64,000 nucleotides of DNA from a virus. The position numbers and the translations under genes are program-made. Shown here in pieces: positions 20,901 to 35,923 of this stretch; positions within the stretch are counted from its first letter, which is position 1; each line of letters starts with the position of its first letter. Under the pieces are notes generated by a model. That model was not told where the DNA came from and did not search any database. It saw only the letters and a program-made list of their open reading frames with translations. The stretch spans positions 5,007 to 69,006 of the IMG/VR virus record IMGVR_UViG_3300043409_000868, one strand, 5' to 3'.

Positions 20901-23900
20901 TATTGGTGAAACATTTAATAATACTGAGAATCAATATCAACAACAAACTGGTGCTCGTAGTATTCGAGAAAACAGAGCTTATTCTCAACAATGGATTGAC
21001 AGAGTTTCTTATGAAGTTGGTCAATTAAGAATTGAAACTACAGATGATGAGTTTAAAACTTTATTAAAATATGCACAAGAAGTTGCAACAGGAATGGGTC
21101 CAGTAGATCCACCAGGTATCTCAGCTGAGAAAATAGATCAAGCTAAAAAAGTAGGTAAAACCACTTTAAAAAATTCTAGACAACTTAGATTCTTTATTTA
21201 CGGAAAACTTGCAAAACTTTTTGAAGAAATTCCAGTTCAATTAGATAAATCATTATTTGGATCTAGGCAAATTAGTTCAGATCCCAATAAACAATTAGGG
21301 TTTGAAAAAAATAGACAAGATCTAATAGATGCAACTGCTAAACAAATTATAGAAAATGTAGAAACAGGTTCAATAAACGGTGCTTTGTTTTATGCAAGTG
21401 GTTTAGGACCTAAAATTAATAGATATTATGGTTATGATGATAAAACAGATTCAATTGATCCAGAATTTATTACGGAAATGAAACGAGTTCAAAATTCAAA
21501 TCCAGCTACGTTTAGGATGATTTCAGAAATTGCTGTAAGACAACTAGCTAATAGAGATAATTTAACTGAGGCTGAAGCATATAGAAAATTAAATCAATCA
21601 ATAAGTGATGGTTCTTTTTTAATTAATGGTTCTCCAACAATGCATAAAATTTGGCATGAATCTGCTTTAAAATTCTATAGTTTAATTAGTACCTATAAAC
21701 ATATTAGTCATGTAAATGATGGTATCAATAAAATAGCTAAATCTAACACCTTTAGTACTATATCGTTGAAGTATCTTGGAGAATGGGCAGATGAAATAAA
21801 CATAACTATAAATTCAAATGATGAAATAAGAACAGCTGGTCCTTTATTTGTACCTAATGGAAATCAATTCCTTCCAGATGGTGTTTCTAGTGTTACTAAA
21901 AAATCTACAATGTTATTAACAGGACAGAAACAAACTAAAATAGCAGATATCATGGCTGGTTTATTTTGGTCTGAAATGGGAGAACAACCAGATTACCTTA
22001 GGACAAATGAAATTATTACTGGTGCGCATATGAGACAAAACGAAGATATCAGTAAATTCTTACAGAATAGACTAGATAGTGTACTTGCTGATGTAGAACG
22101 TTCCAAGGGTTTTAGAGCTGCTTCTCGTATTGCTATTCAAGATATTACTGGAATAACTGGTTATGATATATACGATCTTATTTCTTTATTTAAACAAATA
22201 AGTGATAACTTTGAACCAAAAGAAAGAACAGAACTTTTAGATTCTCTAAAGGTAATTGAGCAAAAACTTCAGATTGAGCAAGGAATGAGTGCTAGGGGAT
22301 TAAACGATGAGGACGATCTTTACACTAATTTCTTCCTTAAGTGGGGACCTGATGTTACTAGATTAGCCTATGGTTCTAACTTGAATACGGCATCTTTAGT
22401 TATGGAAGGTGCTCTTGGTGCGTTAATTACAACTCGTTATGGAGGTAATCCAGTAACATTCTTTACAGATTTATTTGGTAGTGTCTTTGGAAACTTACCT
22501 AAAGCACTCTTTGGAGGAAGTACATACAACCCAAGAGGAGTAGCTGTAAATATGATGCGTGGTTTAGAACACTCTACAAGAAACGCTAGAGAAGTTGCAA
22601 CTCAACAAACAAACTATGTAGCTGATGGTGCGTCTAGATGGGAAAGATATAAGGCAATGATGTCAAGAGTTAACAATTCTATATTTAATGGAATTGCTGA
22701 AGGAATGACAAATCAAGCGCAAAACATTATAATTGATCACCTTAATAATGGAAATTTGTTTAAGATCAGGGATATGTTAGGCAAAGAGACGTTAAATAAT
22801 ATGGATGAATTAAAGGCAGCTTTAAATAAATACAATATTATTGGTATTCTACCCCATATGGTATTTGAATTAAAACAAGCTGGTATCTTTGAACCAAAAA
22901 TTTTAGAAGCTTATCAGTATATGTTAAATAACGTAAAGAGTAAGAAAATAAATAATGGTACTTTAGATTTTATTGCTGCAAACGAATGGAATGAAACCCA
23001 AAAATGGAACATACTACTCACTCATAAATTAGGGTTTGATAGAAATACAGCTTATCGTGCTGTAGCTAGTATGTATGAAGCTACAAAAAACTTTAGAAAT
23101 ATTGTATTAGTTGAGAATAATCCTTGGGATAGTAATACACATAGTGGTGGATTACGATTCTTAATGTCATTTTATAGACAATACCCTAATTTATTCTTTT
23201 CTCAAAAAGTAATGAGATTGGCTAATAAGGTAGACACAGGTACGTTTGCTGCTATGCTTATTAGCACTACAATCTTAGATTTACTATATAATGCTCTTTT
23301 ATTAGTTGCTCTTGGTGCTATACCCCTAGCAGCTCTGTATCCATTCTCAGATGAGTTTTTATTTAAGAAGAATCCATTAGCTGCTACTAGATTAATTCTT
23401 GGAAGAAATCCAATTTTTGGTCTTACTGGTAACTTAATTTTTGGAGCTTTGACTACTGGCTATCAGAATTATTTATCTATTAACAATGCTTATGCTAGGA
23501 AAAATAGATTTCAAGCACTAAAAAAATCAATTAAAACAGGGATTGATCAAACTGATTTAAGTATTGTTCCACAGCAAGCTGCTGAAACTTTAATTAAAGA
23601 TCCTATAACTATGATTATTCTTGGTTTAATTGCTGGTGGGAATATAAATGAAAAAGAAACATATGATATGCAGAATGCTGCTATAAATACTGGATCTAGA
23701 GTACTTCCAATTTTTGGTGAAATGGTTGTTAGAATTGGAGCTACAAGGGTACTAATAGGAGAAAACCCAAATCTCAAGAAACGTAGTAAAGTATCTCCAG
23801 GTATCAAACCTAATACTAAACCTAAGGGTCCAATTCAAGGATTACAAGCACCAAAGATTTCGTCTGCTAGTACTAATCCACTAACACCACCCGATTCATT

Positions 23901-23910
23901 AATAACCTAA
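11911..23910 (+). CDS. Giant (3999 aa) putative virion-ejected protein: DEDDy 3'-5' exonuclease, single-subunit RNAP-like module, zincin motif and hydrophobic gp16-like C-terminus
   Basis: Exonuclease motifs FDLEW / GHNILGSDSD / YIQGD. Motif A-like WDDVQSGHHH, then DYY, then motif B REFFKGAVIPVFYS. HEISH...EEFLA zincin motif. Confidence 0.7.
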   Translation: MSTKSCDISDFIKNLTEQLNPDGTRKFTDDQIKGKLKVAYKKGYISRAQIIAASGKEDTLISETEFKELETLTDLLVSSNKPLFDVFSPEQAKRLLELTNKAKNSVGYGEEGRLNQSRLQEIINLASERTPETSISILTLVDESIQRAENNGDKKRAAELRDLKVRFQKMNDLSSKLKIDWNAIVKTNKQSDKLTAEYAIVRSILDVGDRETAEKRTVLSQKILAVVDEQKTIIKDTTISEEEKVKPVAKLEAEKQNLVTQLEEITSKKFAVNRKKLEKRLKTITHELRRLQDNAPNSFLNKILVTVSGMDPEFVVTSLRELKERQLKVEDDIKLVEKVIEQYPTDKEFSFPELENLIGDDISTTKSIKSYFYEIDLDADGKPRLDSSLRPMKKRKEKITFSDMKAIVDIWKTIKRNNSYDSTITNVEANMIRNALLSGDQKLVSEVDPADPLPISRTNAERITLKVGKQYDPRKLEDRVSAIKDLHVALKRLSYISSLANNSGVISSGMLVGVLGSNAQSLSHKFDSALADDSELSNPYIPEGETTNEGRRAVLRGQLTALGYSDSDINAMPEMRNEYHDDFTKILAFDLEWEKGTNNIIAISIVELLNGEPTPVNSRVIYSTAGKDKNFSKEDAEEFLQLIHRYQNEGFKVTGHNILGSDSDVQKLVSVSKNTKLGMSIALRSLDTMLLAFRNGDKTSFSRNFGPSLDNLAKAFKVGSKAGTGITGESAHGVWKSGDYSKFEEYIQGDSILAARILQEMSKNEGKDIKVMNSRKQEQTLHIHETVPIWYDTGKPEMGRNQRYTGVNVLYDIQSFNNLRENAQQTIYDNTLYDIAKVRNVMTNMVLGLMRTNNAKDIDTLFSAINASETDALENIDMVMSISRVNHEAYLPILQQVRNSNGNRFLSNAAREENGDISYTYCDNGTDYENQVIEEIFNTLSAYNRKAEKTITRFAELVGFRGIGETENLIDFTKALFSFSAQKFNNKESIKIQDFGNGIFDYVSAVQLGRGFSQIMLGHVEEGLTLSQNIKTPVEEIDRIREVAKIDGEEIAGEDSRNLVEKREYLPITRQNVSYFAPLSMYEQERAYNDFALRERFHYILNKDITDDDVREFEKWVGTNKIVEFKNNIKDRLRLHKLFREGLIKTVNDVKLFMYDLGIESFTGYDPISIILNKDLSKDEKVKLFYDGASFAKNELATYMKELDRTRLEQGRVQNYNILMIANNRDIYNRIPTLEEVKEMSLEVALDLPQMVATWVHDSHNTRPEERRHLEEKNYWEMSELSSGGPTGAALLSGIYPQIAWYMSHPEITSDPKAMEQLVYKSLQNGIAGGSRFSRSSYWDDVQSGHHHIVALQWAYFPDESHVQEGGLLQILDNIKTGNVGRSDLKDYYNETANEFAKALGELTNAAIMRGGSDSSTNPELAQIERINNALNRSNESREFFKGAVIPVFYSAGFNGVLKGLRDKQKKMPGDPISELNDEDIQFIAAKLTVTGAIGTGRLIDTILGMDTEKSREIIKLFGEGTKRLTFDMRKRWIDIMNLDKDLKNNYISEDAARAGINLRLRMIAELTLPARYETTRFEREEWIKDRVKLLTEKWNKRIENGMEIIRKSGKKGVEVGSQSERDFHVALAGNESAFKTQMSLMAINQMQNSGLKLNSSDRDILEASVRTGRYIAEGDLMYANNVVFTTVGFGSGSARAQYVGNYLTNLHGSRLSKGNRTVYNDDHSINWDETIKNSAWSLEGNPLTGKPRNEAIAEIDKLAVKHYLLQVATDYAPTMIGYNQENESRSNFFNQWKNRTKQEREYDYMGRMNDVAKLKTLYETEDPTTKRTLTDAEIELSIASNSTPINKRIGTRILAGDFASPHDETVMSMSDAKGLAAFRPRLADDAFDDRIVHGLYSIYQGTKQLNLGVGRFRSAVQKLKEDNTTPESILDMENSRATQYDPEELGVYFPEIDSSLTQEIFGQRPTFNQKLNKMRFLLDTFGMQHGLQELVKAKEYTRLYQIYKVRQAMKKFALLLGESKDSKWDMRFLHRHFIQQVFRITKAQRDASNSSRNLLNFLKSIGIDPSLFKDGFGNNLHWIDTLGILADMGIEELSTLKFGMSPVEMLTTSTTETPSILKSGSTIVMPNVIQGEDVSVIIQSIWADVRVQQKATEYADRLVSEGTLSSYEKDPTGKYILLAAVPKDIQVQIAQTIFTDDELIMDVAENLGLHVTLEFVAGENMLRLQGSKLHASSLGAYVVPRRGLGFPSANRTVLGERDVKTYLTPEAVKSILYSAKNAKFFSRLETAVQVDKYLGQTTIVDRLRQQQYGEYLDRHLEQIAEETELLEALEEGKLQKLRTERMRDELGVELNLYDAEAYFTSEDEITGLTPFKNAMSLDMRIAYERAKQYPLLQDEAETLRKLTTKVEHEKLFLQISFITFLRNNVSGKELTDPQLRMLVNEHFGSELTNSEFESLMKNANEITEIIDRINFSPFKGKNPYLAQAVKHRQMLLYDPDVLNVTSGYRSQNDIINFMEEFDIPSKDYEIAAQAVIEAYAITNRSVGNAETYLTIPSSDLVNIASDPDEFARVFPSGSHINSQLSKLVKDGVIDGETEIFYRLLIGKILKHNPNLAKFLSIECDDLSTSRSAEAVKEDDRFIIKLNTKLLKNMGRIDQTRVFAHEISHIARLAFIADNSPEWRKVESLFRSKKGRDSIPTMLLIMNNNSKYEGFDQDVKYYTENVEEFLAQWGSWILLEKVFNNPAVMQAIQSRSTAALFASNAYKSSFYRMRDEVLSITTGLAEVDEGVLSSILDITESMFGFTSSVERTIHVTNANQKLGMISSFDTPLSSREGEVDKLSSLQNKVNVSGISSLTVIEQAEYKILTNKYSVSPLKNLDIVTYKKLRSTRESRQGTSLALPHVRSSSGKFLSTLDDLKTPEKLELANTIILESIKRGGKLARNLGTVGGLAREQSEKMFGKKATEMFLVSRYLLGTWDLTQASKTHQSQNIVVASLMHIIGETFNNTENQYQQQTGARSIRENRAYSQQWIDRVSYEVGQLRIETTDDEFKTLLKYAQEVATGMGPVDPPGISAEKIDQAKKVGKTTLKNSRQLRFFIYGKLAKLFEEIPVQLDKSLFGSRQISSDPNKQLGFEKNRQDLIDATAKQIIENVETGSINGALFYASGLGPKINRYYGYDDKTDSIDPEFITEMKRVQNSNPATFRMISEIAVRQLANRDNLTEAEAYRKLNQSISDGSFLINGSPTMHKIWHESALKFYSLISTYKHISHVNDGINKIAKSNTFSTISLKYLGEWADEINITINSNDEIRTAGPLFVPNGNQFLPDGVSSVTKKSTMLLTGQKQTKIADIMAGLFWSEMGEQPDYLRTNEIITGAHMRQNEDISKFLQNRLDSVLADVERSKGFRAASRIAIQDITGITGYDIYDLISLFKQISDNFEPKERTELLDSLKVIEQKLQIEQGMSARGLNDEDDLYTNFFLKWGPDVTRLAYGSNLNTASLVMEGALGALITTRYGGNPVTFFTDLFGSVFGNLPKALFGGSTYNPRGVAVNMMRGLEHSTRNAREVATQQTNYVADGASRWERYKAMMSRVNNSIFNGIAEGMTNQAQNIIIDHLNNGNLFKIRDMLGKETLNNMDELKAALNKYNIIGILPHMVFELKQAGIFEPKILEAYQYMLNNVKSKKINNGTLDFIAANEWNETQKWNILLTHKLGFDRNTAYRAVASMYEATKNFRNIVLVENNPWDSNTHSGGLRFLMSFYRQYPNLFFSQKVMRLANKVDTGTFAAMLISTTILDLLYNALLLVALGAIPLAALYPFSDEFLFKKNPLAATRLILGRNPIFGLTGNLIFGALTTGYQNYLSINNAYARKNRFQALKKSIKTGIDQTDLSIVPQQAAETLIKDPITMIILGLIAGGNINEKETYDMQNAAINTGSRVLPIFGEMVVRIGATRVLIGENPNLKKRSKVSPGIKPNTKPKGPIQGLQAPKISSASTNPLTPPDSLIT

Positions 23911-24005
23911 GTAAATCGACTTAGGGGTCAGAAATTTTCGTGGGGGTCGGTAGCTTTAGCTAAAATAGCTTTACCCCCCGTACCCCCACCAACGAAAGGT
24001 CAGGT

Positions 24006-24116
24006 ATGAAAATTTTCTTGCTGATCAATACGTTCATGGTGGCACACAAGAACTATATTGCCTTCATTGGCAGTATACTTTGTGTGTCAGCATGGATCGT
24101 AAAGATCTATGGTTGA
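24006..24116 (+). CDS. Small hydrophobic early peptide (36 aa)
   Basis: MKIFLLINTFMVAHKNYIAFIGSILCVSAWIVKIYG. GAAAGGT upstream and a hairpin downstream. Confidence 0.45.
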   Translation: MKIFLLINTFMVAHKNYIAFIGSILCVSAWIVKIYG

Positions 24117-24151
24117 CAGCCAATCCCTCATGCTTTCGTAAGAGAGCATGA

Positions 24152-24197
24152 GGATGTTAGCTGTCGCTAACAAACGTACCTATGCGTTACATAGGAT
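24152..24197 (+). repeat. 46-nt intergenic direct repeat A, copy 1 (two hairpins)
   Basis: GGATGTTAGCTGT(C/T)GCTAACAAACGTACCTATGCGTTACATAGGAT, repeated at 24361-24406. Confidence 0.9.
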
Positions 24198-24211
24198 ACA
24201 GGAGATATGCC

Positions 24212-24328
24212 ATGACTTGGCTTATCTGTATCATCGGTGGACTCCTTATTGGAGTCTTATGTAGTCTCGCCTCTATCTTCAGCCGCTGGGCTGAAGAAGC
24301 CAGGAAGGCAGGTGCATACAAGAGATAA
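24212..24328 (+). CDS. Small membrane peptide (38 aa)
   Basis: AGGAG SD. MTWLICIIGGLLIGVLCSLASIFSRWAEEARKAGAYKR. Confidence 0.6.
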   Translation: MTWLICIIGGLLIGVLCSLASIFSRWAEEARKAGAYKR

Positions 24329-24360
24329 CACTCCGCCCCTTTGCTACGGCAAGGGGGCGG

Positions 24361-24406
24361 GGATGTTAGCTGTTGCTAACAAACGTACCTATGCGTTACA
24401 TAGGAT
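24361..24406 (+). repeat. 46-nt intergenic direct repeat A, copy 2
   Basis: One mismatch to copy 1. Confidence 0.9.
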
Positions 24407-24432
24407 TTTATAGTCTGAAAGGACTAGACAGT

Positions 24433-24681
24433 ATGAGCAAGACGAAGAAGAAGCTGATGATGAATATCATCGTCTGGTGGGTTATCCTGGTAGGAGGAAC
24501 ATGCGTTCTTTCGTACTTGACCTTTGTCATTGGGAAGTACGTGATGTGTGAGGCAACTCACCCAGCGGAGTGGATGTTGGTTGGGCTGTGTGTTGGTCTT
24601 CCGATCATGGGTGTGTACTTTCTTATTTGCATTGCAGATGAGATCAAGTCAGACATGATTCGTTTCCGCTTTATGAAGTAA
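24433..24681 (+). CDS. Small 2-TM membrane protein
   Basis: AAGGA SD and two hydrophobic helices. Confidence 0.65.
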   Translation: MSKTKKKLMMNIIVWWVILVGGTCVLSYLTFVIGKYVMCEATHPAEWMLVGLCVGLPIMGVYFLICIADEIKSDMIRFRFMK

Positions 24682-24734
24682 GTAGCTAAGAGGCTACCCA
24701 AGCTCCCTAGGGAAACCTAGGGAGCGAAGGGCTG
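24682..24734 (+). repeat. 53-nt intergenic direct repeat B, copy 1 (GAAA-tetraloop hairpin)
   Basis: GTAGCTAAGAGGCTACCCAAGCTCCCTAGGGAAACCTAGGGAGCGAAGGGCTG, repeated at 24967-25019. Confidence 0.9.
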
Positions 24735-24791
24735 TATCTTAACAGCACATGTGTACCTATGCACTACATAGGATATTTCAAGGAGATCCAA

Positions 24792-24974
24792 ATGGATCAG
24801 CCTAAGAAAACCACAACAAGGTATATTGTTGTGGACAACGTGTTTGGTGTGGATCTTGTTATCCATACCAATTTGAAAGAGGCCAACATTGATGCTGGCC
24901 TTTATCCTCAAACCCATATTGTTGTAGAAGTTACAACAGAATGGGAGAACGTTAAGACAATCTCTCGTAGCTAA
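24792..24974 (+). CDS. Small hypothetical early protein
   Basis: AAGGAG SD, flanked by the two repeat B copies. Confidence 0.6.
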   Translation: MDQPKKTTTRYIVVDNVFGVDLVIHTNLKEANIDAGLYPQTHIVVEVTTEWENVKTISRS

Positions 24975-25019
24975 GAAGCTACCCAAGCTCCCTAGGGAAA
25001 CCTAGGAAGCGAAGGGCTG
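24967..25019 (+). repeat. 53-nt intergenic direct repeat B, copy 2
   Basis: Two mismatches to copy 1. Confidence 0.9.
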
Positions 25020-25104
25020 CGTCGTAGCAGCAAACCCCTAAGGCATTGGGGGTGCCCTATTGAGGGCCTACTCATAACAGTGGCATAGCCACAAGGAGAG
25101 TTCA

Positions 25105-26980: not shown

Positions 26981-27067
26981 CTTGGGCATTTTGCCCACCT
27001 CGTCTACAGGAGTTCTCTGTAGAAGATACCTGTTTGTCTTAAAAACAGGCTATTAGGAGCATGTCAC

Positions 27068-27475
27068 ATGAGTGACATCAACGTTGGTTCGCGTCAGGTC
27101 ATCCGCAACTCCGAAGGCAAGGTTGTCGGGACTTTCCTCCCGTCAAAGAAACACTTCGGCAAGTTTGCGGTTACCACGTTCCTTCCGTCTGGCGAAGCGC
27201 ACACCACAATCAAGGGAGTATCTGATTGGGTCATGATCACGGAGCGCAACCCAGACTGGACATTCTCTCCGTCTTACTACACCGTTGCGTGTGGTAAGGA
27301 GGGTGATGAGGTGGTGATTGAACTGACGCACAACAGTGTTCCAGAGTGGAACACTACGTTTCGCGTGCCACACGCAATGAACTGGCAGGATTCGTTCCTG
27401 ATCTCGTTCCGCATGGGCATGATGTCTCTGGGTCGTGAGACGCACATCGGCAACTTTGTCGATCTCACGGTCTGA
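27068..27475 (+). CDS. Hypothetical early protein (135 aa)
   Basis: AGGAG SD, GC-rich codon usage like the adjacent RNAP. Confidence 0.7.
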   Translation: MSDINVGSRQVIRNSEGKVVGTFLPSKKHFGKFAVTTFLPSGEAHTTIKGVSDWVMITERNPDWTFSPSYYTVACGKEGDEVVIELTHNSVPEWNTTFRVPHAMNWQDSFLISFRMGMMSLGRETHIGNFVDLTV

Positions 27476-27638
27476 GAGACAAGTAAAACAAGTACGGAGC
27501 AACCCCCCTTGGGCAACCAAGGGGGCCTCTCCCTATTTGTTCTAGGTAATATGAGTTATTATATACTCTAGACTATTTGTAACCATAGACTATGGAGTAG
27601 TTATAGACTATAGGCATATCATTATACCCAGGTCAGTA

Positions 27639-27682
27639 CCATACCATACCCATACCATACCCATACCATACCCATACCATAC
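27639..27682. repeat. (CCATACCATAC)x4 tandem repeat
   Basis: Four exact 11-nt units in a non-coding region. Confidence 0.95.
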
Positions 27683-27820
27683 CCCTACCCAGCTTATAGA
27701 ATGCCGTAGCGGTCATCCTAGGGCCATTTCCTGCCATTCTACAAGGTATATCCAGCAGCTATCTATAAAAAATGCGTATAACTGTGGAATGCCCTGCTAA
27801 TTTCCCATATTATACTTATT

Positions 27821-27847
27821 TATCGTCCCCTTCGGGGACCGTGGTGG
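27821..27847 (+). promoter_or_regulatory. Candidate phage promoter, hairpin motif copy 1
   Basis: TATCGTCCCC-TTC-GGGGACCGTGGTGG. Confidence 0.7.
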
Positions 27848-27928
27848 AAATTGAGTAGTACTCAAGCCCAGATATAATATAGATCAGAGCGTAAACTATC
27901 TATAGATATATCTGAATTAGGAGACAAC

Positions 27929-28192
27929 ATGTCTGATCCCAATACGCCTGACATCTCCGTTGATCCCATCGCAGCTGTTTTTCCTGTTGATCCCGTTGCT
28001 ACAATGCTTCGGACTGGCCAAATTCTCATCACTCTCAAAGGTGAGTCAAATTGGCCTGGGAATTACAAGAACCTGAATGACCGTCAAATCATGAATTTGA
28101 TCAAGATGGTTCAAGAAGGTCGAGCTAACAAGCCAGAGACGGTCAAGGCTATCCTGCGGGAAGCGTTGGATCGTCAACTCATCTCGCCATGA
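27929..28192 (+). CDS. Hypothetical protein (87 aa)
   Basis: AGGAG SD, located between motif copies 1 and 2. Confidence 0.7.
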   Translation: MSDPNTPDISVDPIAAVFPVDPVATMLRTGQILITLKGESNWPGNYKNLNDRQIMNLIKMVQEGRANKPETVKAILREALDRQLISP

Positions 28193-28193
28193 G

Positions 28194-28220
28194 TATCGTC
28201 CCCTAAGGGGACCGTGGTGG
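28194..28220 (+). promoter_or_regulatory. Candidate phage promoter, hairpin motif copy 2
   Basis: TATCGTCCCC-TAA-GGGGACCGTGGTGG. Confidence 0.7.
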
Positions 28221-28250
28221 TCTATAGGGAAACCTATAGATCATCTTTCA

Positions 28251-28336
28251 GGTCTATCAAGAGCCTATACATAAATCTTGGTGCAAACATCAACTAGGTA
28301 GCCAATCTGGAGGCTAAGTAGTGCTCTTAATGATGT
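28251..28336 (+). ncRNA. Hatchet-like ribozyme candidate
   Basis: UC|U, P1 TATCAAGA/TCTTGGTG, CAA linker, P2 ACATCA/TGATGT, P3 ACTA/TAGT, P4 TAGCC/GGCTA and 3' TAGTGC..TTAA. Lacks the G-rich strand expected between P2 and P3. Confidence 0.35.
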
Positions 28337-28365
28337 AGCTTATAGTGTAGCTTACTATAAGTATT

Positions 28366-28458
28366 CACCTAAGCATGTGTTTAAACTGCTTACGCTGTCC
28401 AAGAACGGTAGTCATAAGTTTCTTGGTATTCACCTAAGCAATGTGCCTAAACTGCTTA
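28366..28458 (+). repeat. Two tandem copies of a compact pseudoknot motif (further copies at 28880-28905 and 28964-28991)
   Basis: CAC-CTAAGCA-(A)TGTG-NNTAAAC-TGCTTA. Confidence 0.75.
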
Positions 28459-28576
28459 CTTTGTTAACTACTGGCTGTGCCAGAGTTTGGTACCACAATG
28501 TCCGCCAAAAACCTATAATAGGGCGGTATAAAAATACTATACCATTACGGTACATAGGTAAATTGCGTATACCGCG

Positions 28577-28647
28577 ACTCAACTAGATGAGTATAAATAG
28601 GGTTTAAGTCTAGTGCGCCCCCTTCCATTTTACGATGGGGGGTACCC
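28577..28647 (+). ncRNA. Pistol self-cleaving ribozyme
   Basis: P1 ACTCA/TGAGT, loop ACTAGA pairing with TCTAGT, ATAAAT linker, P2 GGGT/ACCC, TTAAG, GCG, P3 CCCCC/GGGGG. GU cleavage site at 28642-28643. Confidence 0.85.
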
Positions 28648-29046
28648 AGCGAGGGTAACAATAATTGAATCATACCTCAACTCTTCTGTTGACATCCATT
28701 CAATTTTAGAAGTATTGTTATCTAGACTAAACAGCAATTGTTAAGTTTGCCGAGTCACACAATTGCTGGGATCAATAAACTCGGATCTTCCTACACAAAG
28801 GGGCACCTTTGTATAGGAGTTTACCGCAAGCAACCTAGCCCATAGGCGGTATATAAATAGTGGGACATTATACTGTGTAGACCTAAGCATGTCAAAAAAA
28901 GGCTTTGGATTTAGGGTATGATAAGACTATCCTAGCATATCACCTAAGGTATGTATAACTTTCACACCTGAATATGTGTTTAAACTATTTACAGATTACA
29001 ATACACCTAGGCGTACTAGGTATTACTTTATTGGAGATATATTTAA

Positions 29047-29298
29047 ATGACTGATTCAGGTATCCGTATTGCGCTTTGGGAAGTCAACAGTGAGAATCCC
29101 AACAGCCCTAAGTTCAATGGTATTGTTACTATTGATGGTAAGGAGCACAAGGTATCCCTTTGGGATAATTCGGCAGCTACGCACCCTAAAGCCCCAAGGC
29201 TTAAGGGAAAGACGAGCCGACCAAGTCCAAAGGTTGAAGAAGAGTCCATGATTACTGAGATTATCTGTGTCCCTATGGGCACGAATCTCCCCTTCTAA
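29047..29298 (+). CDS. Small DUF736-like putative ssDNA-binding protein
   Basis: N..SPKFNG.VTIDGKEHKVSLW pattern and C-terminal LPF. Confidence 0.5.
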   Translation: MTDSGIRIALWEVNSENPNSPKFNGIVTIDGKEHKVSLWDNSAATHPKAPRLKGKTSRPSPKVEEESMITEIICVPMGTNLPF

Positions 29299-29302
29299 TC
29301 AG

Positions 29303-29336
29303 GGGGTACTTAGGGAAACCTAAGTACCCCTTTTTT
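29303..29336 (+). terminator. Rho-independent terminator
   Basis: GGGGTACTTAGG-GAAA-CCTAAGTACCCC followed by T6. Confidence 0.9.
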
Positions 29337-29339
29337 CCG

Positions 29340-29458
29340 AATACCCTAGTATATAGCTAGGGTTTAACCTTAGGTTTATCACCTAAGAATAACCTAAGAT
29401 ACTTAGGTTATATAGTATTATTATTATAGTATTATATCACCTAAGTATTAACCTAAGA
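29340..29458. repeat. ACCTAAG short-repeat, AT-rich cluster (candidate origin)
   Basis: ACCTAAG x4 plus inverted CTTAGGT copies around TATAGTATTATTATTATAGTATTATAT. Confidence 0.55.
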
Positions 29459-29465
29459 GGGATAT

Positions 29466-29864
29466 ATGTCACACGAAATTGTTGAAGAAGTTGCTAAAAG
29501 GTTAGATGCTAAGGTTCTTATAAGATTTGAAGACAGCAATGGTTACCAAGGTGTAATCTATTATGTCTTAAGTAAGAGTAATACTTACTCTATTGTATCT
29601 GTTCACTACGGGACCTGTGCTCTTTGTGATTTTCAACTTGGTTTGATTGAAGAATACCGAGAAATGTGGCCTGATGTTAATAATGAGATTCCCCTTAGTG
29701 CTTTCGAGCCTATGATTCAATCTCTTTTTAAAGATGTTGAAGAGTTTGGATTCCATTCAGTTGAAGACCTTATCACTAAATTTGATATGATCTTTGGTGT
29801 TGGCTACAGTGAAGAACTTGTTCGTGAAGAAGTACTTAAGTATCTTCTTCGTAATTGTCTATAG
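29466..29864 (+). CDS. Hypothetical protein
   Basis: ORF with a GAGGG SD. Confidence 0.7.
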   Translation: MSHEIVEEVAKRLDAKVLIRFEDSNGYQGVIYYVLSKSNTYSIVSVHYGTCALCDFQLGLIEEYREMWPDVNNEIPLSAFEPMIQSLFKDVEEFGFHSVEDLITKFDMIFGVGYSEELVREEVLKYLLRNCL

Positions 29865-29874
29865 GAGAATAATT

Positions 29875-30240
29875 ATGGGTCTTGATACTTATGCTGTATA
29901 CTCTAGTAAACATCCTAATTATACTCAGGATGGGGATAACTCCATACCTGACACATTGTTCCCCGATAACAACCTGTGTGGTGGGATGTTTAGTGGAATG
30001 GGTGCCTCATTTCGAGGCAAACGTTACAATGACTATGTAGAATGGGCAACTGGGGTTTCCCTTTATGATCGTTTAATTGATTCAGAAGTTGTCCAAGATA
30101 TGTATATCTCACTAAAGAATGCTGACTTTAGGCAGTATCGTGGTGATAATTGGGGTATTACTAAAGAAGAAACAAAACAACTAACGGAATGGTTCCGTGT
30201 AGTTAGTGAAGAAAATGGCTCTATTGCAGGATGGTGGTAA
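29875..30240 (+). CDS. Hypothetical protein (MGLD... family)
   Basis: AGGAG SD, MGLDTY start and WW end typical of phage early proteins. Confidence 0.7.
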   Translation: MGLDTYAVYSSKHPNYTQDGDNSIPDTLFPDNNLCGGMFSGMGASFRGKRYNDYVEWATGVSLYDRLIDSEVVQDMYISLKNADFRQYRGDNWGITKEETKQLTEWFRVVSEENGSIAGWW

Positions 30241-30241
30241 C

Positions 30242-30613
30242 ATGTATACAGTTGATATGTCTATTGTTAATAAGAAGGTTCAACAGCGTGTAGAGAAGAT
30301 CCAAACTGTAGCTAACGCTAAGAAGATTCCTTTGATTGCTGCTGCTATGTGGGTAGACCAGAATGGTCCCGAGAGCACCAATAAGAAGATGTTGGCTGAG
30401 ATTGGTATGAACTTTGATGAGGTTACATTGGATAACTACAAGGATGTTCTTGTTGGTCTTGAGTGTATCAATGTCAAGGTTGTATGGCAAGAGAATCATC
30501 CTCTTACCCGTGTTGTTGAGCAACTCAATGAAGTAATTAATGAAACAATTACTGAGTGTTGGGGTGGCGAAGACATGCAAGAGTTTATTGAACTTACTCC
30601 TATCTTCGAGTGA
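30242..30613 (+). CDS. Hypothetical protein
   Basis: ORF coupled to the previous gene. Confidence 0.65.
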   Translation: MYTVDMSIVNKKVQQRVEKIQTVANAKKIPLIAAAMWVDQNGPESTNKKMLAEIGMNFDEVTLDNYKDVLVGLECINVKVVWQENHPLTRVVEQLNEVINETITECWGGEDMQEFIELTPIFE

Positions 30614-30954: not shown

Positions 30955-31155
30955 ATGATGAGGAACGAGATGAATATGGAAATCAACCGTCTGAAGTCGA
31001 GACTGATCCTCAATACGGATGCCTCGACCGCTGGTCGAATTAATGAGTTGTTTGAGCGAGGAATCATAGCTGATTTCTCTGAAGATGGATGGGTACTTTA
31101 CCATAAAGAGTGGTATCCATTCAACACTTTCCTTGAAAGGATTAAGTATGTCTAG
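30955..31155 (+). CDS. Hypothetical protein
   Basis: ORF overlapping the next start. Confidence 0.55.
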   Translation: MMRNEMNMEINRLKSRLILNTDASTAGRINELFERGIIADFSEDGWVLYHKEWYPFNTFLERIKYV

Positions 31156-32110
31156 TGTGTTTAATTTTGTTGGTGCTACAGTCGAGGGTCTTTCTCTCGA
31201 AAAGGCAACCAGTCTAGCTGAGATGAATTGGAGCGTAAGTAAGCGTCCTATTTATGTCTCAGATATTTCTGAAGGAAAGAATAGCAATGAACTATTCTCT
31301 ACGAGTAAGTTCTTTGCTACTACTAGGGATGATACAAATCAAATCCTTGGTATCGTTGGACCTGATTATCAGGTTGTTCAAAACAGCGAGCTTGCCTATA
31401 TGTGTGAGCGTCTTCAGGGATCTGATGTAAAGATTGAGACTGCTGGTATCCTTGATAACGGTCGCCGAGTCTTTATTCAGATGCGTGGAAATCCATTTGA
31501 TGTTGGTCCTAAGCACGATACCAACATCCCTTATACCTTGTTCACTAATGGACATGATGGACAATGGCCCCTTAGTTCGTTGCCTACTTCTTATCGAGTG
31601 ATCTGTCAGAATACTCTGAACATGGCACTACAGAATGGTAGCAAGACTAATATGATTATCAGTATCCGACATACTGGTAACATGCAAGATCGTCTTGAGT
31701 CTATGTTCCAATCAATTCAGAATTGGAAGGATCGTACTGTTACTTTCCAGAATCAAGTAGAACTACTTGCTCGTAAGGAAGTTAATACCGAGCTTGTCCA
31801 AAGCTTCTGGACTAATCTCTATGTAAATTTGTTTGGAGATATCCATGAAAATCCTACTACAGAGGAACATTTGGACAATAACAAATCCGCAATGTCAACA
31901 ATGACTACGTGGAGTAATACATTTGACTCCGAGGTTAAGTTGAGTGGTGCTAACATGTGGACTGCAGCTAATGCAGTTACTTCATGGTTGGATCACAACC
32001 AAATCTATCGTGGTGTAAAGAAGAATGAAAACAGGTTCAATGATACGCTCTTTGGCACTGGTGCCAAGGAGAAGGTTCGTACTATGAACTATGCTCTGAC
32101 TGCTATCTAA
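31148..32110 (+). CDS. DUF932 / LGT_TIGR03299-family protein
   Basis: LGIVGPDYQVVQN, IETAGILDNGRRVF, TNGHDG, RVICQNTL, IRHT motifs. Confidence 0.85.
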   Translation: MSSVFNFVGATVEGLSLEKATSLAEMNWSVSKRPIYVSDISEGKNSNELFSTSKFFATTRDDTNQILGIVGPDYQVVQNSELAYMCERLQGSDVKIETAGILDNGRRVFIQMRGNPFDVGPKHDTNIPYTLFTNGHDGQWPLSSLPTSYRVICQNTLNMALQNGSKTNMIISIRHTGNMQDRLESMFQSIQNWKDRTVTFQNQVELLARKEVNTELVQSFWTNLYVNLFGDIHENPTTEEHLDNNKSAMSTMTTWSNTFDSEVKLSGANMWTAANAVTSWLDHNQIYRGVKKNENRFNDTLFGTGAKEKVRTMNYALTAI

Positions 32111-32114
32111 TTAT

Positions 32115-32153
32115 AGGGTAACCTAGGAAGTAATTCCTAGGTTACCCTTTTTT
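32115..32153 (+). terminator. Rho-independent terminator
   Basis: AGGGTAACCTAGGAA-GTAA-TTCCTAGGTTACCCT followed by a T-tract. Confidence 0.9.
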
Positions 32154-33446: not shown

Positions 33447-33470
33447 TATCGTCCCCTTCGGGGACCATTG
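33447..33470 (+). promoter_or_regulatory. Candidate phage promoter, hairpin motif copy 3 (directly upstream of the main RNAP)
   Basis: TATCGTCCCC-TTC-GGGGACCATTG. Confidence 0.7.
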
Positions 33471-33487
33471 TGACACAAAGGAGAACA

Positions 33488-35923
33488 ATGCTAGAATCTT
33501 GGCATAAATTAAGTGTGGAAGAAAAGTCTCGTAGAACAACAATGCAAAAGATCTACGAGGAAGAGTTGCTTGAAAATGGTGTTGAAAAATATTGGAAAGA
33601 GTATGGTAGGTCACCTGATGAAGGTAAGCCAGAACAACTGCTACTTGAATCAGCTGTAATACATCTCACTCCTTATTACCAAAAATGGATTGATGAATGT
33701 TGTAGTAATCGTAAGTCACCTGATTGGCTAGCACCTTTACTTAGTATTGGTGCAGCTAAGATGGCAGATATTACTCTTCGATCAATGATGAGATTGTTTC
33801 TAACAAGAAATACAATCCAAAGTTTTGATGATACAATGGGTATCCCAGCTAATGCTCCTGTTGCTCAACAAGTAGCAAAGCTTATCTCTGAGGATGTTGT
33901 ATCTATTGTTGCTTATCAACAAGCAAAGAAACGATTCTCTGAAGATTGGCGTAAGCAATCTAAGTTCATTAAGAACTGGACTGTTAAGCGGTGCAAAGCA
34001 TTTACATCTAAAGTTGCTAAGATCCCTAAGCTAAGGCCTAAGGAGAAAGAAGACTTTGGTCACAACATGCTTAGAGTTGCCCTCTCTAGTGATATCCTCA
34101 CTAGTAGGATTCATTGGAATGGTAAAAATAAAAAGTCATTACTAGTATCTTTCTCTCCTTGGATCTTATGTGAAATCCAAAAGAGACATGAGCTACTAGA
34201 GACAGCTTGCCTTGTTTACAGGCCAATGATCTCACCACCCATCCCACATACAACTAAAGAAGATGGTGGGTTTCTCAGCCCCTGGGTGCGTAAGAAGATG
34301 ATCAAGAGATATCATCCTGTTGGAGCAGATCCAAAGGAGTGGGACTCAAGACCATCCCCTATGGTTCTTAAAGGTCTTAATGCTTTAATGGAAACAGAGT
34401 GGTCAGTTAACACTCAAGTCTACCAAGTCATGAAGACTATGTTTGAGAATGATTATAAGGCTGCTAACATTCCTGCATACACATTCAGAGACTATGCTTT
34501 CTCTAGGGAGTATCCCATTGATGGGACCAAAGAAGAGAAAGCTAAGTGGATGCAAGAATCTAATGAAGCATGGGGCGAGTGGTATAAGGAAGAACAATCA
34601 CGATCTAGAATGATCGTTAGATTAGAGTTGGCAAGAAAGATGATTCAATGGAACTTCTTTTATATGCCATACACCCTTGACTTTAGAGGACGTACCTATT
34701 CGGTATGTGAACTTCTATCTCCTCAAGGTATTGACTTTGATCGAGGACTTGTTCACTTTGGAATGCCACGTAAACAAACTAAAGAAGGTTTGTATTGGTT
34801 GTATGTCCATGTAGCAAATCTATTTGATCAAGACAAGAAACCATTTGACCACCGTGTTAAATGGGTTAAAGATAATATGGATCTCTTCCTCCGTATTGCT
34901 GATGATCCATATGCTAATAAAGAATGGATTGATCCAAGTAAGAAGAAGAATAAATCATTTCAAAGATTGGCTGCTATCTTTGAGGTATGCAGGACAGATG
35001 GACTAACACAACTCCCTGTTCAAATGGATGGTGCAAATAATGGTGGTCAACATTGGGCTGCTATTATGCGTAATAAGAAACTTGGTATCCTAACTAATCT
35101 TATTAAAACAGAAAAGCCACAAGATCTCTATCAGTATGTAGCTGATGCTGCTACTGAGTTTATGAAAGAGAATCCAACTAATAGATGGTATCCTGCATTT
35201 CTAGAGTATTGGGATAATAGACTTCCTCGTAGTGTAACTAAGCGTTCTACTATGTGTGATGCTTATGGTCTTACATTCTATGGTATGCAGAAATATGTCA
35301 AGCAAGAGGGTCATGTAGATTGGGTAAGTAAAGAACAAAGAGGTGGAGCTGTAGTAGAACTAGCTCGCGCTATCCAAGTTGGCCTAGGTGAGACAATGCA
35401 ATCGCCTAACCTAGGCAAAGTTTGGCTACGAGAAGTAGCTACTATTCTTAACTCTTTAAACAAACCTTTTGTATGGACTACACCTAGTGGCTTTGAGGTA
35501 CATCATGTTTATAATCAAATACTTGAACGAGTCAGTTATGCTGAGTTGTTTAATCGTCAGCAACTTGTTTTCAGCACTGTTACGGAAGACCTTAATGGTA
35601 AAGCACAATATCTTGCAATTTCTCCAAACTATATCCATTCGCTAGATGCTGCTCATATGTTTATGACAATTTCTAGGATGTTAGATACAGGTATGAGTGC
35701 CTTTTCATTTGTCCATGATTCTTATGGAACATATGCACCTGACATTCCTGTCATGCATAAGCTATTGCGAGAAGAATTCATCAAGATTCATAAGGAGAAT
35801 CAACTTGAAAACCTCAAAAAAGAAATTGAAAAAAGATATGGAATCTATCTCCCCGAAGTCCCCACCCAAGAAGAAGGTTTTGACCTCCAAGAAGTCGTTG
35901 AATCAGAATACTTCTTCGCTTAA
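33488..35923 (+). CDS. T7-like single-subunit DNA-directed RNA polymerase
   Basis: DFRGR, motif A MDGANNGGQH, motif B RSVTKRSTMCDAYG, PNYIHSLDAAH, motif C VHDSY. AAGGAG SD before ATG 33488. Confidence 0.97.
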   Translation: MLESWHKLSVEEKSRRTTMQKIYEEELLENGVEKYWKEYGRSPDEGKPEQLLLESAVIHLTPYYQKWIDECCSNRKSPDWLAPLLSIGAAKMADITLRSMMRLFLTRNTIQSFDDTMGIPANAPVAQQVAKLISEDVVSIVAYQQAKKRFSEDWRKQSKFIKNWTVKRCKAFTSKVAKIPKLRPKEKEDFGHNMLRVALSSDILTSRIHWNGKNKKSLLVSFSPWILCEIQKRHELLETACLVYRPMISPPIPHTTKEDGGFLSPWVRKKMIKRYHPVGADPKEWDSRPSPMVLKGLNALMETEWSVNTQVYQVMKTMFENDYKAANIPAYTFRDYAFSREYPIDGTKEEKAKWMQESNEAWGEWYKEEQSRSRMIVRLELARKMIQWNFFYMPYTLDFRGRTYSVCELLSPQGIDFDRGLVHFGMPRKQTKEGLYWLYVHVANLFDQDKKPFDHRVKWVKDNMDLFLRIADDPYANKEWIDPSKKKNKSFQRLAAIFEVCRTDGLTQLPVQMDGANNGGQHWAAIMRNKKLGILTNLIKTEKPQDLYQYVADAATEFMKENPTNRWYPAFLEYWDNRLPRSVTKRSTMCDAYGLTFYGMQKYVKQEGHVDWVSKEQRGGAVVELARAIQVGLGETMQSPNLGKVWLREVATILNSLNKPFVWTTPSGFEVHHVYNQILERVSYAELFNRQQLVFSTVTEDLNGKAQYLAISPNYIHSLDAAHMFMTISRMLDTGMSAFSFVHDSYGTYAPDIPVMHKLLREEFIKIHKENQLENLKKEIEKRYGIYLPEVPTQEEGFDLQEVVESEYFFA

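Follow-up and report, generated by a model that had tools for sequence, protein, structure and literature searches.

In phage T7, RNase III processing sites lie between the early genes, and a comparable arrangement is built in synthetic biology as ribozyme-plus-hairpin insulators. Phage leaders can also contain pseudoknots, as in T4 gene 32, where an H-type pseudoknot stands upstream of a small early gene. The preQ1-I and SAM-II RNAs are small aptamers that fold as H-type pseudoknots and have an A-rich third loop, and the RNA antitoxins of type III toxin-antitoxin systems, together with their phage mimics, are pseudoknotted small RNAs derived from one precursor and usable as phage decoys. By analogy with the T7 sites and the insulators, the locus analyzed here would place a processing site, with stable structures at the ends that it creates, in an early polycistronic transcript; unlike them, the array RNA would cut itself, and its structured portion is roughly tenfold longer and contains elements with constant loops. 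The roles of self-cleaving ribozymes in bacteria and phages are still largely unknown, according to PMC6765202. Compared with the phage ribozyme clusters, as portrayed in PMC6765202, PMC10085705 and PMC5737381, the locus likewise combines a ribozyme in a phage intergenic region with conserved structured RNAs. It differs in that only one known ribozyme is present, that its neighbors are pseudoknots of no known family and that its place in the phage life cycle, the first early unit, can be deduced. No description of such an array was found in the literature searched, a scope outside of which lie the supplementary motif lists of PMC5737381, PMC10085705 and the 2015 ribozyme-discovery paper.

The locus belongs to an uncultured lake or freshwater phage of 69 kb with a T7-like gene order, of which a stretch of 64,000 nucleotides (the window) was analyzed. 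On the + strand, positions 28213-29046 form a spacer of about 830 nt between two small early ORFs. A blastn search with positions 27000-30500 against 50,697 phage records returned no matches, and the closest cultured relative of the phage RNA polymerase shares only 28% identity. The comparisons detailed below support the view that this spacer is a non-coding + strand array of RNA modules that fold independently. Their order from 5' to 3' is a hairpin block, hairpins with ACCTAAG boxes, the pseudoknot c1, a pistol ribozyme, module b, module a, a 12-bp hairpin and the pseudoknot c2. In related phages the module helices are upheld by compensatory substitutions, and G.U pairs assign the array RNA to the + strand. 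All sequences quoted in a preliminary description of this DNA were recovered at their positions, and the three elements that it had singled out (module a, module b and the related pair c1 and c2) proved to be real.

The same description had called the region poor in ORFs, which was borne out: the longest ORF on the + strand has 69 aa and a GTG start. It had also named short translated ORFs as a finding that would overturn an RNA reading, and all five + strand ORFs of at least 25 aa turned out to be broken by a frameshift or stop in the relatives L002 and/or L003. Comparison of the relatives thereby showed that 28213-29046 holds no conserved ORF. In some relatives an apparent short ORF follows c2; the window and L003 have no ATG for it, and in L090 and L111 it meets a stop after two codons. 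The upstream flanking early ORF (87 aa, 27929-28192, + strand) has no family match, and the protein atlas gave nothing for it. The downstream ORF (83 aa, 29047-29298, + strand) is conserved in relatives and falls in phage hypothetical clusters of the protein atlas; in one cluster 10% of the members carry DUF736, a weak lead towards a resemblance to DUF736-like phage proteins. As the array modules are not identical tandem repeats and no toxin-like gene is adjacent (neither flanking ORF has a family match), the locus was rejected as a type III antitoxin array; it would resemble one in yielding pseudoknotted small RNAs from a single precursor, and it also differs in that a ribozyme would do the processing.

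The pistol self-cleaving ribozyme (Rfam RF02679) occupies 28577-28647 on the + strand and scores 50 bits against a cut-off of 34.5 (E = 1.3e-7), with model positions 1-68 of 68 aligned. In the cmscan alignment P2 is formed by GGGT/ACCC and P3 by CCCCCTTC/GATGGGGG, and the 2-nt junction GT is found at 28642-28643, which places the predicted scissile bond between G28642 and U28643. The upper-case consensus positions of the Rfam model are matched in this alignment, a comparison with the letters of the model rather than with the published ten conserved nucleotides. P1, P2, P3, the pseudoknot with the P1 loop and the 2-nt GU junction are common to this element and to the described class (RF02679; Harris et al. 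2015, PMC4604425); it lies in phage DNA, as many pistols do, and shows no structural difference from RF02679. What is new about this pistol is its context, in the early non-coding array of a T7-like phage clade and between other conserved pseudoknots. Among 12 clade sequences, the five pairs of P1 and the six pairs of the pseudoknot, to which the covariation count refers, were paired in 100% of 132 cells; seven of these 11 pairs were changed on both sides, a result equaled by none of 500 shuffles. Of 44 related records, 14 carry a pistol, as do 6 of the 11 that are at least 90% complete. The ORF-poor gap with its pistol, about 0.8-1.4 kb long, is conserved in L009, L015, L019, L022 and L043, three of which also carry c2, and the relative L025 has two type II hammerheads at the same genomic region in place of the pistol. 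Several ribozymes had been claimed for the region; an Rfam search of the whole window yielded only the pistol. The hammerhead core CUGAnGA (permuted forms included, following PMC10085705) was absent from 28213-29046 when read by eye, and there was no Rfam hit. One ribozyme implies a single cut with one self-defined end per product and not the excision of each module. The idea of a processed non-coding transcript is a reasonable reading given a self-cleaving ribozyme, but with one cut instead of the several that had been envisaged.

Module b (28654-28722, + strand) consists of three nested helices, an outer (28654-63/28713-22), an inner (28664-70/28698-704) and an innermost one (28677-81/28688-92). 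Its nested fold has a z-score of -3.35, none of 200 shuffles folds as well, and changes on both sides affect two of five pairs in the innermost hairpin and one of ten in the outer stem. The possible loop-to-junction pairing of CTTCT (28683-87) with AGAAG (28708-12) never varies, so that the comparison is neutral on it. Module a (28732-28784, + strand) is an H-type pseudoknot with a 10-bp stem, CAGCAATTGT (28732-41) with ACAATTGCTG (28759-68), and a 6-bp second helix between the loop CCGAGT (28750-55) and ACTCGG (28779-84). It is the only element of its type on the + strand of the 64-kb window, and when the region was shuffled 2000 times with dinucleotides kept, 7 shuffles contained a perfect hairpin of at least 9 bp with a 6-nt pairing of loop and 3' flank. 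Across the window, L002 and L003 all six pairs of the pseudoknot are kept, two of them via changes on both sides; pairing in the stem amounts to 96%. A 12-bp hairpin follows just before c2 (28790-28817, + strand; z = -5.57), with one compensatory pair relative to L002 and L003. It is a poor terminator, because only three T follow it in the window; in the other subclade its place is taken by a hairpin with a GAAA loop and then TTTT. Taken together, modules a and b and this hairpin are paired in 96.2% of 159 cells and six pairs covary versus 2.0 in shuffles, the pairing being kept despite 40-43 substitutions in about 130 nt; for a, b and c1 these comparisons draw on three to four distinct, closely related sequences. 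The interval from pistol to c2 exists in two unrelated sequence versions of similar layout (shortest lengths 177-195 versus 187-188 nt). The module boundaries act like recombination joints: one RNA-library contig retains pistol and c2 with different letters between them.

The pseudoknot c1 lies directly 5' of the pistol (28502-28558, + strand), with stem S1 at 28502-06/28522-26, S2 at 28518-21/28537-40, an A-rich linker (28527-36) and a small hairpin (28541-51). A second loop pairing between 28512-16 and 28554-58 reads CCTAT/ATAGG in the window and CCTGT/ACAGG in L002 and L003. S1 is invariant and all four pairs of S2 covary among four sequences, which are the only distinct sequences with a c1-type pattern across all loci examined. 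The pseudoknot c2 (28823-28867, + strand) is likewise of the H type, and the A-rich linker common to both resembles that of the pistol. Its S1 is formed by 28823-27/28846-50 and S2 by 28839-43/28860-64, with loop 1 AAGCAACCTAG at 28828-38 and loop 3 ATATAAATA at 28851-59. Over 31 distinct sequences, aligned to a model that includes S2, 96.4% of 302 cells are paired; six of ten pairs covary with both sides changed, which none of 500 shuffles reaches, and slid controls give 32-53%. Pair 26-43 is U.G in 27 of the 31 sequences and would be a mismatch on the opposite strand. For a, c1, c2 and the repeat region, the nested-fold z-scores do not stand out (-1.2 to +0.4).

By these comparisons c2 is the best-conserved element of 28213-29046. 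Of the 45 loci collected by RNA polymerase alone, 13 contain it (one of these is truncated), among them phages whose polymerases share only 64-79% identity. The constancy of its loops is partly by construction, as L061-L124 were fetched by a pattern that fixes those bases, and independent support for it comes from the polymerase-fetched loci only. Where present, c2 is found in one copy, except for four contigs with two. In L015 and L019 c2 stands upstream of the pistol; c2 occurs without pistol in L027 and L029, pistol without c2 in L022 and L043, and in many relatives c2 comes just after, not before, a terminator-like hairpin. A cmscan of 27500-29600 against Rfam 15 at E up to 10 gave no match for c1, c2, a or b and returned only the pistol and four chance hits of microRNA models at 29385-29466. 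A pattern scan for c2 in cellular genomes of 185,579 species produced five stretches, none with two helices by eye; chance matches made up 15 of 29 stretches from IMG/VR and 4 of 36 loci from metagenomes. A full-text literature search with a 13-letter stretch of c2 found no match. No cis complement of loop 1 of at least 6 nt is consistently placed in 18 loci (400 nt upstream plus 500 nt downstream), and over this range the locus of the window has none. We propose c2 as a candidate new RNA motif, compact, well supported by covariation and missing from current family libraries.

Known folds were compared with c1 and c2. Like preQ1-I and SAM-II, both combine a 5-bp stem 1 and a 4-6-bp stem 2 with an A/U-rich loop 3 of 9-10 nt placed along stem 1. 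They differ from these aptamers in having no Rfam match at E up to 10, a long, constant loop 1 (9-11 nt) and no ribosome-binding site or terminator coupled to the fold nearby. As the T4 gene 32 pseudoknot does, c2 lies upstream of a small early gene; unlike it, c2 keeps a variable distance to the next ORF (about 180 to about 1800 nt) and may stand upstream of the pistol. In the nested double pseudoknot of HDV-like ribozymes, P2 is separated from the 3' strand of P1 by a P3 hairpin, and P1.1 comes right after P1. By inspection c1 and c2 have only 2-3 nt in place of P3 and a linker of 9-10 nt after stem 1, and were rejected as HDV-like ribozymes. Also rejected was c2 as a pistol variant, as P2, P3 and the scissile junction are missing and the 3' strand of S2 directly follows the linker; no partial pistol match was obtained at c2 at E up to 10.

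The remainder of the spacer is also structured. The 5' block (28222-28357, + strand) comprises, at 28222-28240, an 8-bp hairpin whose loop is GAAA, followed by a multi-hairpin domain; a z-score of -3.96 was obtained for the nested fold of 28213-28360, and the block is nearly invariant in L002 and L003 and so offers no covariation test. Directly before it, a repeated hairpin motif TATCGTCCCC-N4-GGGGACCGTGGTGG (28193-28220, + strand) had been taken for a candidate phage promoter. The 27-nt motif is indeed repeated, with four copies in the window (27825, 28198, 33451 and 36329), all on the + strand and each before a gene or cassette, and one of them overlaps the polymerase gene at its start. The 6-bp stem of the motif does not vary but its 4-nt loop does (TTCG, TAAG, TACG), a pattern more in keeping with an RNA hairpin than with a double-stranded promoter. 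Promoters of the latter kind would be expected in many copies, conserved at every position and placed ahead of middle or late genes. The 3999-aa virion ORF had no sequence match in Pfam, PHROG or PDB and was rejected as an N4-like injected polymerase using hairpin promoters. A sigma-70-like site at 27851-27878 was discarded as well; it overlaps a hairpin that covaries in L005 and is not conserved there. Two copies of a 28-nt repeat with the box TCACCTAAG (28366-93 and 28432-59) enclose a 7-bp hairpin, and two further copies lie at 28880-28907 and 28965-28992, all on the + strand with irregular spacing (66, 448 and 85 nt). Each forms a 5-bp hairpin TAAGC/GCTTA that covaries among copies (TGAAT/ATTTA; TGAGC/GCTCA in relatives). 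These repeats were rejected as pseudoknots, as each strand of the 64 kb has 82 examples of a generic fold whose stem 1 is 3 bp long, with 3 in the region versus 1.0 expected. The 3' part (28908-29046, + strand) contains a 7-bp hairpin (28914-20/28930-36) and further ACCTAAG-type boxes. The hairpin ACCTAG-GCGTA-CTAGGT (29005-21) comes next, and after it GGAG and the ATG that starts the following ORF. Beyond that ORF, a perfect 12-bp stem with a GAAA loop followed by TTTTTT (29303-29338, + strand) resembles an intrinsic terminator; it was not listed by the terminator scan and is evident from its letters, and it probably ends the first early transcription unit. With a second strong terminator at 32115-32148, two of them separate the array from the phage polymerase gene.

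Relatives at 88-99% identity are present in RNA libraries of four studies. These metatranscriptome contigs carry no strand or ends and DNA carry-over is possible; they lend weak support to transcription of 28213-29046. One RNA-library contig spans the predicted cut site of the pistol. In libraries of two studies the pistol is interrupted by a contig end at 28616, with another contig starting about 80-130 nt further on, a break that strain variation could cause and from which nothing is concluded about the uncovered part.

We tentatively propose, as a reading that could well be correct, that 28213-29046 is a non-coding, self-processing RNA cassette on the + strand inside the first early transcription unit. 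The array would be co-transcribed with the flanking 87-aa and 83-aa ORFs up to the terminator at 29303-29338. Cleavage by the pistol at G28642/U28643 would, following the known chemistry of the class, leave an upstream RNA with a 2',3'-cyclic phosphate and a downstream RNA with a 5'-hydroxyl. The approximately 180 nt from the cut to the hairpin at 28790-28817, with modules b and a, would constitute a compact, structure-capped RNA. The pseudoknot modules would cap the pieces and offer conserved loops to a partner, and c2, with about 20 constant loop bases, may be the recognition element for a conserved partner (a protein, an RNA polymerase or a small molecule). The product would be the modules and not the flanking proteins, acting very early and possibly as decoys or regulators. 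Position and turnover make a putative host-takeover or anti-defense role possible.

A purely cis-acting spacer, in which the pistol cut together with the hairpins and pseudoknots uncouples and stabilizes the two halves of an early mRNA and no RNA acts in trans, is a possible but rather less probable explanation. It fits the position of the array between two ORFs of one apparent unit ending at a strong terminator, the stable structure (module b) that begins 11 nt past the predicted cut and the structured module found directly 3' of the pistol in every relative. However, about 830 nt of structure-conserved RNA (0.8-1.4 kb in relatives) far exceeds the needs of end protection, c2 and pistol can each occur without the other, as listed above, and the constancy of the c2 loops across phages with 64% polymerase identity points to specific recognition.

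Alternatively, c2 (perhaps also c1) might be a sensor that regulates in cis or a modifier of RNA polymerase, as a riboswitch-like aptamer of the H-type pseudoknot kind or as a put-like antiterminator with whose help the host polymerase would pass 29303-29338 and 32115-32148 and reach the phage polymerase gene. The H-type fold, A-rich loop 3 and constant loops of c2 recall small pseudoknot aptamers, and its usually single copy ahead of two strong terminators would suit this role. We nevertheless consider it improbable: the Rfam scan returned no riboswitch at E up to 10, the variable distance to the next ORF and the position upstream of the pistol in L015 and L019 leave no fixed expression platform, c2 often comes just after a terminator-like hairpin, and no start codon or micro-ORF was found conserved after it.

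Less credible still is a catalytic c2, either as a new small self-cleaving class or as a pistol-derived fragment working with another strand. It adjoins a known ribozyme, and its 45-50 nt with a pseudoknot, many constant bases and significant covariation are features by which ribozyme candidates are picked (PMC10085705); moreover, the 3' strand of stem 1 and the linker nearly repeat those of the clade's pistols. Against this, P2, P3 and the scissile junction of the pistol are missing, RNA-library contigs cross c2 unbroken (though contigs cannot show absence of cleavage), and highly conserved motifs near ribozymes failed earlier cleavage tests, as stated in PMC5737381. Signals at the DNA level (operators, promoters, origin) or short translated ORFs are the most improbable source of the pattern: ACCTAAG boxes are clustered (11 of the 24 window copies in 28367-29457, with 10 expected for the whole window), some form operator-typical palindromes (29391-29409, 29005-29021) and a perfect sigma-70 consensus lies on the minus strand (28895-28867), but L002 and L010 have lost this promoter, every ORF is disrupted in relatives, and double-stranded DNA sites cannot account for helices that are interleaved (pseudoknotted) and show compensatory changes and strand-specific G.U pairs. 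For the ACCTAAG boxes alone, a DNA-level function may still hold.

A bolder form of the self-processing cassette is unlikely, although worth stating. In it, c2 would be the first member of a new class of functional RNAs, as a small catalytic RNA or as an aptamer that binds a conserved host factor, such as RNA polymerase, with high affinity. The array would also be an RNA-only early weapon and the first product of the phage; its ribozyme would cut it to size, and strains would exchange it as cassettes in an arms race with the defenses of the host.

In this phage clade, the pistol has a fixed address within a definable phage program: it belongs to the first early unit, ahead of the gene for the phage RNA polymerase, and stands between conserved pseudoknots, and the clade supplies dozens of natural variants of this setting. 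An association described as "near phage genes" is turned into testable predictions of the position of the cut, the RNAs that would be released and the loops that should stay constant.

The stretch at 28213-29046 of the window is non-coding and consists of a plus-strand chain of conserved folds, among them a complete pistol ribozyme. It was described beforehand as ORF-poor, which holds: the longest plus-strand ORF comprises 69 aa, begins with GTG and lacks a ribosome-binding site, and in L002 and L003, the two nearest relatives, frameshifts or stops interrupt all five ORFs of at least 25 aa. Every sequence string quoted in the preliminary description was found at the coordinates assigned to it. 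It also listed several ribozymes, of which Rfam finds one in the whole window, the pistol at 28577-28647 (+ strand, 50 bits, cut-off 34.5); a permissive Rfam scan of 27500-29600 returned, besides the pistol, only chance matches to microRNA models. The cmscan alignment contains P1 (ACTC/GAGT), the A-rich linker, P2 (GGGT/ACCC), the pseudoknot (CTAGA/TCTAG), P3 and the two-base GT junction (28642-28643); the class is cleaved at this junction (PMC4604425). In 12 pistols of the clade, P1 and the pseudoknot were paired in 132/132 cells, against 20-42% of cells for slid controls, and 7 of their 11 pairs changed on both sides, a result reached by 0/500 shuffles. The pistol is a new example of a class already known. 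It was detected in 14 of 44 records fetched with the RNA polymerase protein, and in 6 of the 11 with a completeness of 90% or more.

The element c2 (28823-28867) is a 45-nt piece with 88-100% identity (blastn) in phages whose polymerase is merely 64-79% identical, and it is the sole part of the spacer kept at that level there. It folds as an H-type pseudoknot: stem 1 is ACCGC/GCGGT (28823-28827/28846-28850), loop 1 is AAGCAACCTAG (28828-28838), stem 2 is CCCAT/GTGGG (28839-28843/28860-28864), loop 2 is AG (28844-28845) and loop 3 is ATATAAATA (28851-28859). With a covariance model built from 10 sequences, c2 was detected in 13 of 45 polymerase-fetched loci, including a truncated one. Pattern scans yielded 14 true members among 29 IMG/VR stretches and c2 in 32 of 36 metagenome-contig loci, four contigs each carrying two copies 223 nt apart; in cellular genomes of 185,579 species, five stretches were retrieved, none convincing. 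The resulting alignment (51 matches, 31 distinct), fitted to a model that already includes stem 2, is paired in 96.4% of 302 cells, with stem 2 paired throughout (100%). Six of ten pairs changed on both sides, and the score was reached by 0/500 shuffles. Stem 2 occurs as CCCAT/GTGGG, CCTGT/GCAGG, CCCGT/GCGGG and TCCAT/GTGGA, and stem 1 as ACCGC/GCGGT, ATCCC/GGGAT and GTCGC/GCGAC. Because the search pattern presets loop 1, AGG, ATAAAT and GG, evidence for constant loops is independent only in the polymerase-fetched loci, where loop 1 has one variant (L015). A U.G pair in 27 of the 31 sequences assigns the fold to the plus strand. As no regular complement of loop 1 was found nearby, this loop is probably free to be recognised. 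A full-text literature search with a 13-letter stretch of c2 retrieved no paper, although supplementary motif lists of the discovery papers could contain it. A sigma-70 consensus without mismatches (TTGACA, 17 nt, TATAAT; 12/12) on the minus strand at 28895-28867 points antisense into c2; it is retained in L003 and absent in L002 and L010.

Directly 5' of the pistol lies c1 (28502-28558). The preliminary description had regarded c1 and c2 as related, and indeed they share their topology and an almost identical stem-1 3' strand and linker (GGCGG and TATAAAAATA), a kinship that extends to the P1-linker of the pistol itself. Under the c2 covariance model, c1 of the window scores weakly (15.6 bits, E = 0.3). 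Only four distinct c1 sequences were available; the stem 2 letters of three of these differ, yet pairing is kept throughout (ATAG/CTAT, AAGG/CCTT, GAGA/TCTC), so that 4/4 pairs covary. In addition, the loop can pair with bases beyond a small hairpin, and this pairing likewise covaries (CCTAT/ATAGG versus CCTGT/ACAGG), as judged by eye since an indel rules out a column count.

Modules b and a lie in a stretch (28648-28790) that is strongly diverged between the window and L002/L003, with 40-43 substitutions across the ORF span 28613-28744. The proposed helices are nevertheless paired in 96.2% of 159 cells, and six pairs changed on both sides versus 2.0 in shuffles (0/500). The module a pseudoknot changes from CCGAGT/ACTCGG to CCAAAT/ATTTGG and the innermost hairpin of module b from TCAAC/GTTGA to TTAGC/GCTAA; in the outer stem of module b, two pairs are scored as unpaired solely owing to a one-base insertion that moves the register. 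The CTTCT/AGAAG pairing in module b never varies among the three sequences and therefore remains a proposal. Folding energy taken by itself gives a mixed picture: z-scores, from nested folding that is blind to pseudoknots, were -3.35 for module b and -1.14 for module a. A hairpin-plus-pseudoknot of the module a type arose in 7/2000 shuffle trials. The 5' block (28213-28360) and the hairpin at 28787-28819 gave z-scores of -3.96 and -5.57. The 28-nt repeats carry the box TCACCTAAG, all five exact copies of which lie within 28365-29445; of the core ACCTAAG, 11 of 24 copies fall within 28367-29457. Their 5-bp hairpin covaries between copies; a small pseudoknot considered for them performed no better than chance. 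Some boxes are DNA palindromes downstream of the terminator, and protein binding is therefore a live alternative for them. Just past the terminator, seven boxes in both orientations (29340-29460), including the palindrome AACCTAAG-ATA-CTTAGGTT at 29391-29409, look like an operator cluster before the next early unit.

Fetching relatives from IMG/VR with the polymerase protein gave 45 loci (27-100% identity). In L009, L015, L019, L022 and L043 the pistol lies at the same genome place inside an ORF-poor gap of ~0.8-1.4 kb, which c2 shares in the first three. A sister subclade (L009 and equivalents) carries, 3' of the pistol, a conserved domain, a second hairpin-pseudoknot and a GAAA-loop hairpin with TTTT, followed by c2. 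In the domain (L009 4967-5125; equivalents in L005, L010, L015, L019, L022, L050 and L060) a GTTTCA further 3' pairs with the loop (..TGAAAC..) of a hairpin; the hairpin stems covary (CCGTAG/CTACGG, TTAGGG/CCCTAA, CTATGG/CCATAG), and Rfam gave no match for the domain at the gathering threshold. The pistol-to-c2 interval measures 177-195 nt in the shortest sister forms and 187-188 nt in L002 and L003, where it holds the unrelated modules b, a and a hairpin; in a third variant, from an RNA-library contig, pistol and c2 are retained and 129 other letters replace 127. The order also changes (in L015, L018 and L019, c2 precedes the pistol), and each occurs separately: L022 and L043 have a pistol but no c2, and L027 and L029 have c2, adjoining tRNA clusters, but no pistol. 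The array units are therefore autonomous, and the stretch between the pistol and c2 anchors turns over fast. In L027 (4716-5535) and L029 (5283-6781), three clustered tRNA genes follow c2 at a distance of 160-300 nt. The pistol-to-c2 spacer of L089 contains a hairpin with T-arm-like GGTTCGAATCC, at which ARAGORN called no tRNA. In L025 the pistol is replaced by two type II hammerheads (2028-2575; 50 and 45 bits), which lie 5' of the polymerase gene and flank a 128-aa ORF; two cuts would free the RNA of this ORF, one end carrying a 5'-OH and the other a cyclic phosphate.

The source record (69,006 bases, the window being bases 5007-69006) has direct terminal repeats, and all long ORFs of the window are on the plus strand. 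Gene order is T7-like, starting with small early ORFs; a DUF932 gene (31085-32110, +) and the single-subunit RNA polymerase gene (33470-35923, +; PF00940, E = 4.7e-82) are followed by ThyX, primase-helicase, family A DNA polymerase, 5'-3' exonuclease and ribonucleotide reductase, by portal, scaffold and tail genes, and then by terminase. The closest cultured-phage polymerase has 28% identity, and a blastn search with 27000-30500 against 50,697 phage records gave no match. By analogy with T7, the array region is presumably transcribed first. It is flanked by an 87-aa ORF (27929-28192, +) and an 83-aa ORF (29047-29298, +), both without a family match; after the latter come a perfect 12-bp hairpin and a TTTTTT run (29303-29338). 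Another strong terminator-like hairpin (32115-32148; 15 pairs, then TTTTTATTTT) lies 3' of the DUF932 gene and precedes the polymerase gene by ~1.3 kb. The structural module includes a 3999-aa ORF (11911-23910) with no sequence match in Pfam, PHROG or PDB, beside a 1228-aa ORF with long Ala/Pro/Glu-rich tandem repeats. Between the 3999-aa ORF and a 607-aa ORF, a further ORF-poor stretch of ~1.2 kb (23911-25104) carries 46-nt (3 copies) and 66-nt (2 copies) repeats with GAAA-loop hairpins. A non-coding 11-nt tandem repeat (CCATACCCATA-like, ~6 units; 27624-27689), 5' of the early region, may be near the physical genome end.

At the array border, 28193-28220 had been put forward as a candidate phage promoter. 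The motif, GTCCCC-N4-GGGGAC followed by CGTGGTGG-like bases, has four plus-strand copies (27825-27847, 28198-28220, 33451-33473, 36329-36351), each before a gene or cassette, at its border; one overlaps the GTG start of the polymerase ORF. L002 and L003 have an additional copy along with an inserted ORF of ~80 aa. The array copy is identical across 34 nt in L005; the stem is invariant and the tetraloop varies (TTCG, TAAG, TACG), and in both phages a second hairpin of differing sequence follows. We read the motif tentatively as an RNA hairpin marking cassette borders, with a promoter as a less favoured alternative.

Metatranscriptome contigs of relatives (88-99% identity) from four lake or freshwater runs of four studies jointly cover most of 27568-29997, including the array; they carry no strand, ends or levels and could include DNA carry-over, and are compatible with array transcription rather than proof of it. 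The chain and its flanking ORFs would share one transcript, the first early unit, ending at the 29303 terminator, and the pistol is predicted to cut at 28642/28643; terminal structures may protect the resulting pieces, and c2, perhaps with the variable modules, might bind a partner. We tentatively favor, at somewhat less than an even chance, a self-processing cassette with its RNAs as the functional product. A purely cis-acting role in processing and stability, which would draw on the same cut and terminal structures, is possible but rather unlikely. That c2 is a sensor or antiterminator appears doubtful, and a catalytic c2 is more improbable still. DNA-level or coding explanations, faced with the broken ORFs and the U.G pair, are the least credible. 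An anti-defence role for the cassette, a speculative idea of the preliminary description, fits its early position and cassette-like turnover. The elements c2, c1, a and b have no match in Rfam 15, and the array as a whole is a variation on ribozyme-associated structured RNAs, a kind already known in phage DNA.
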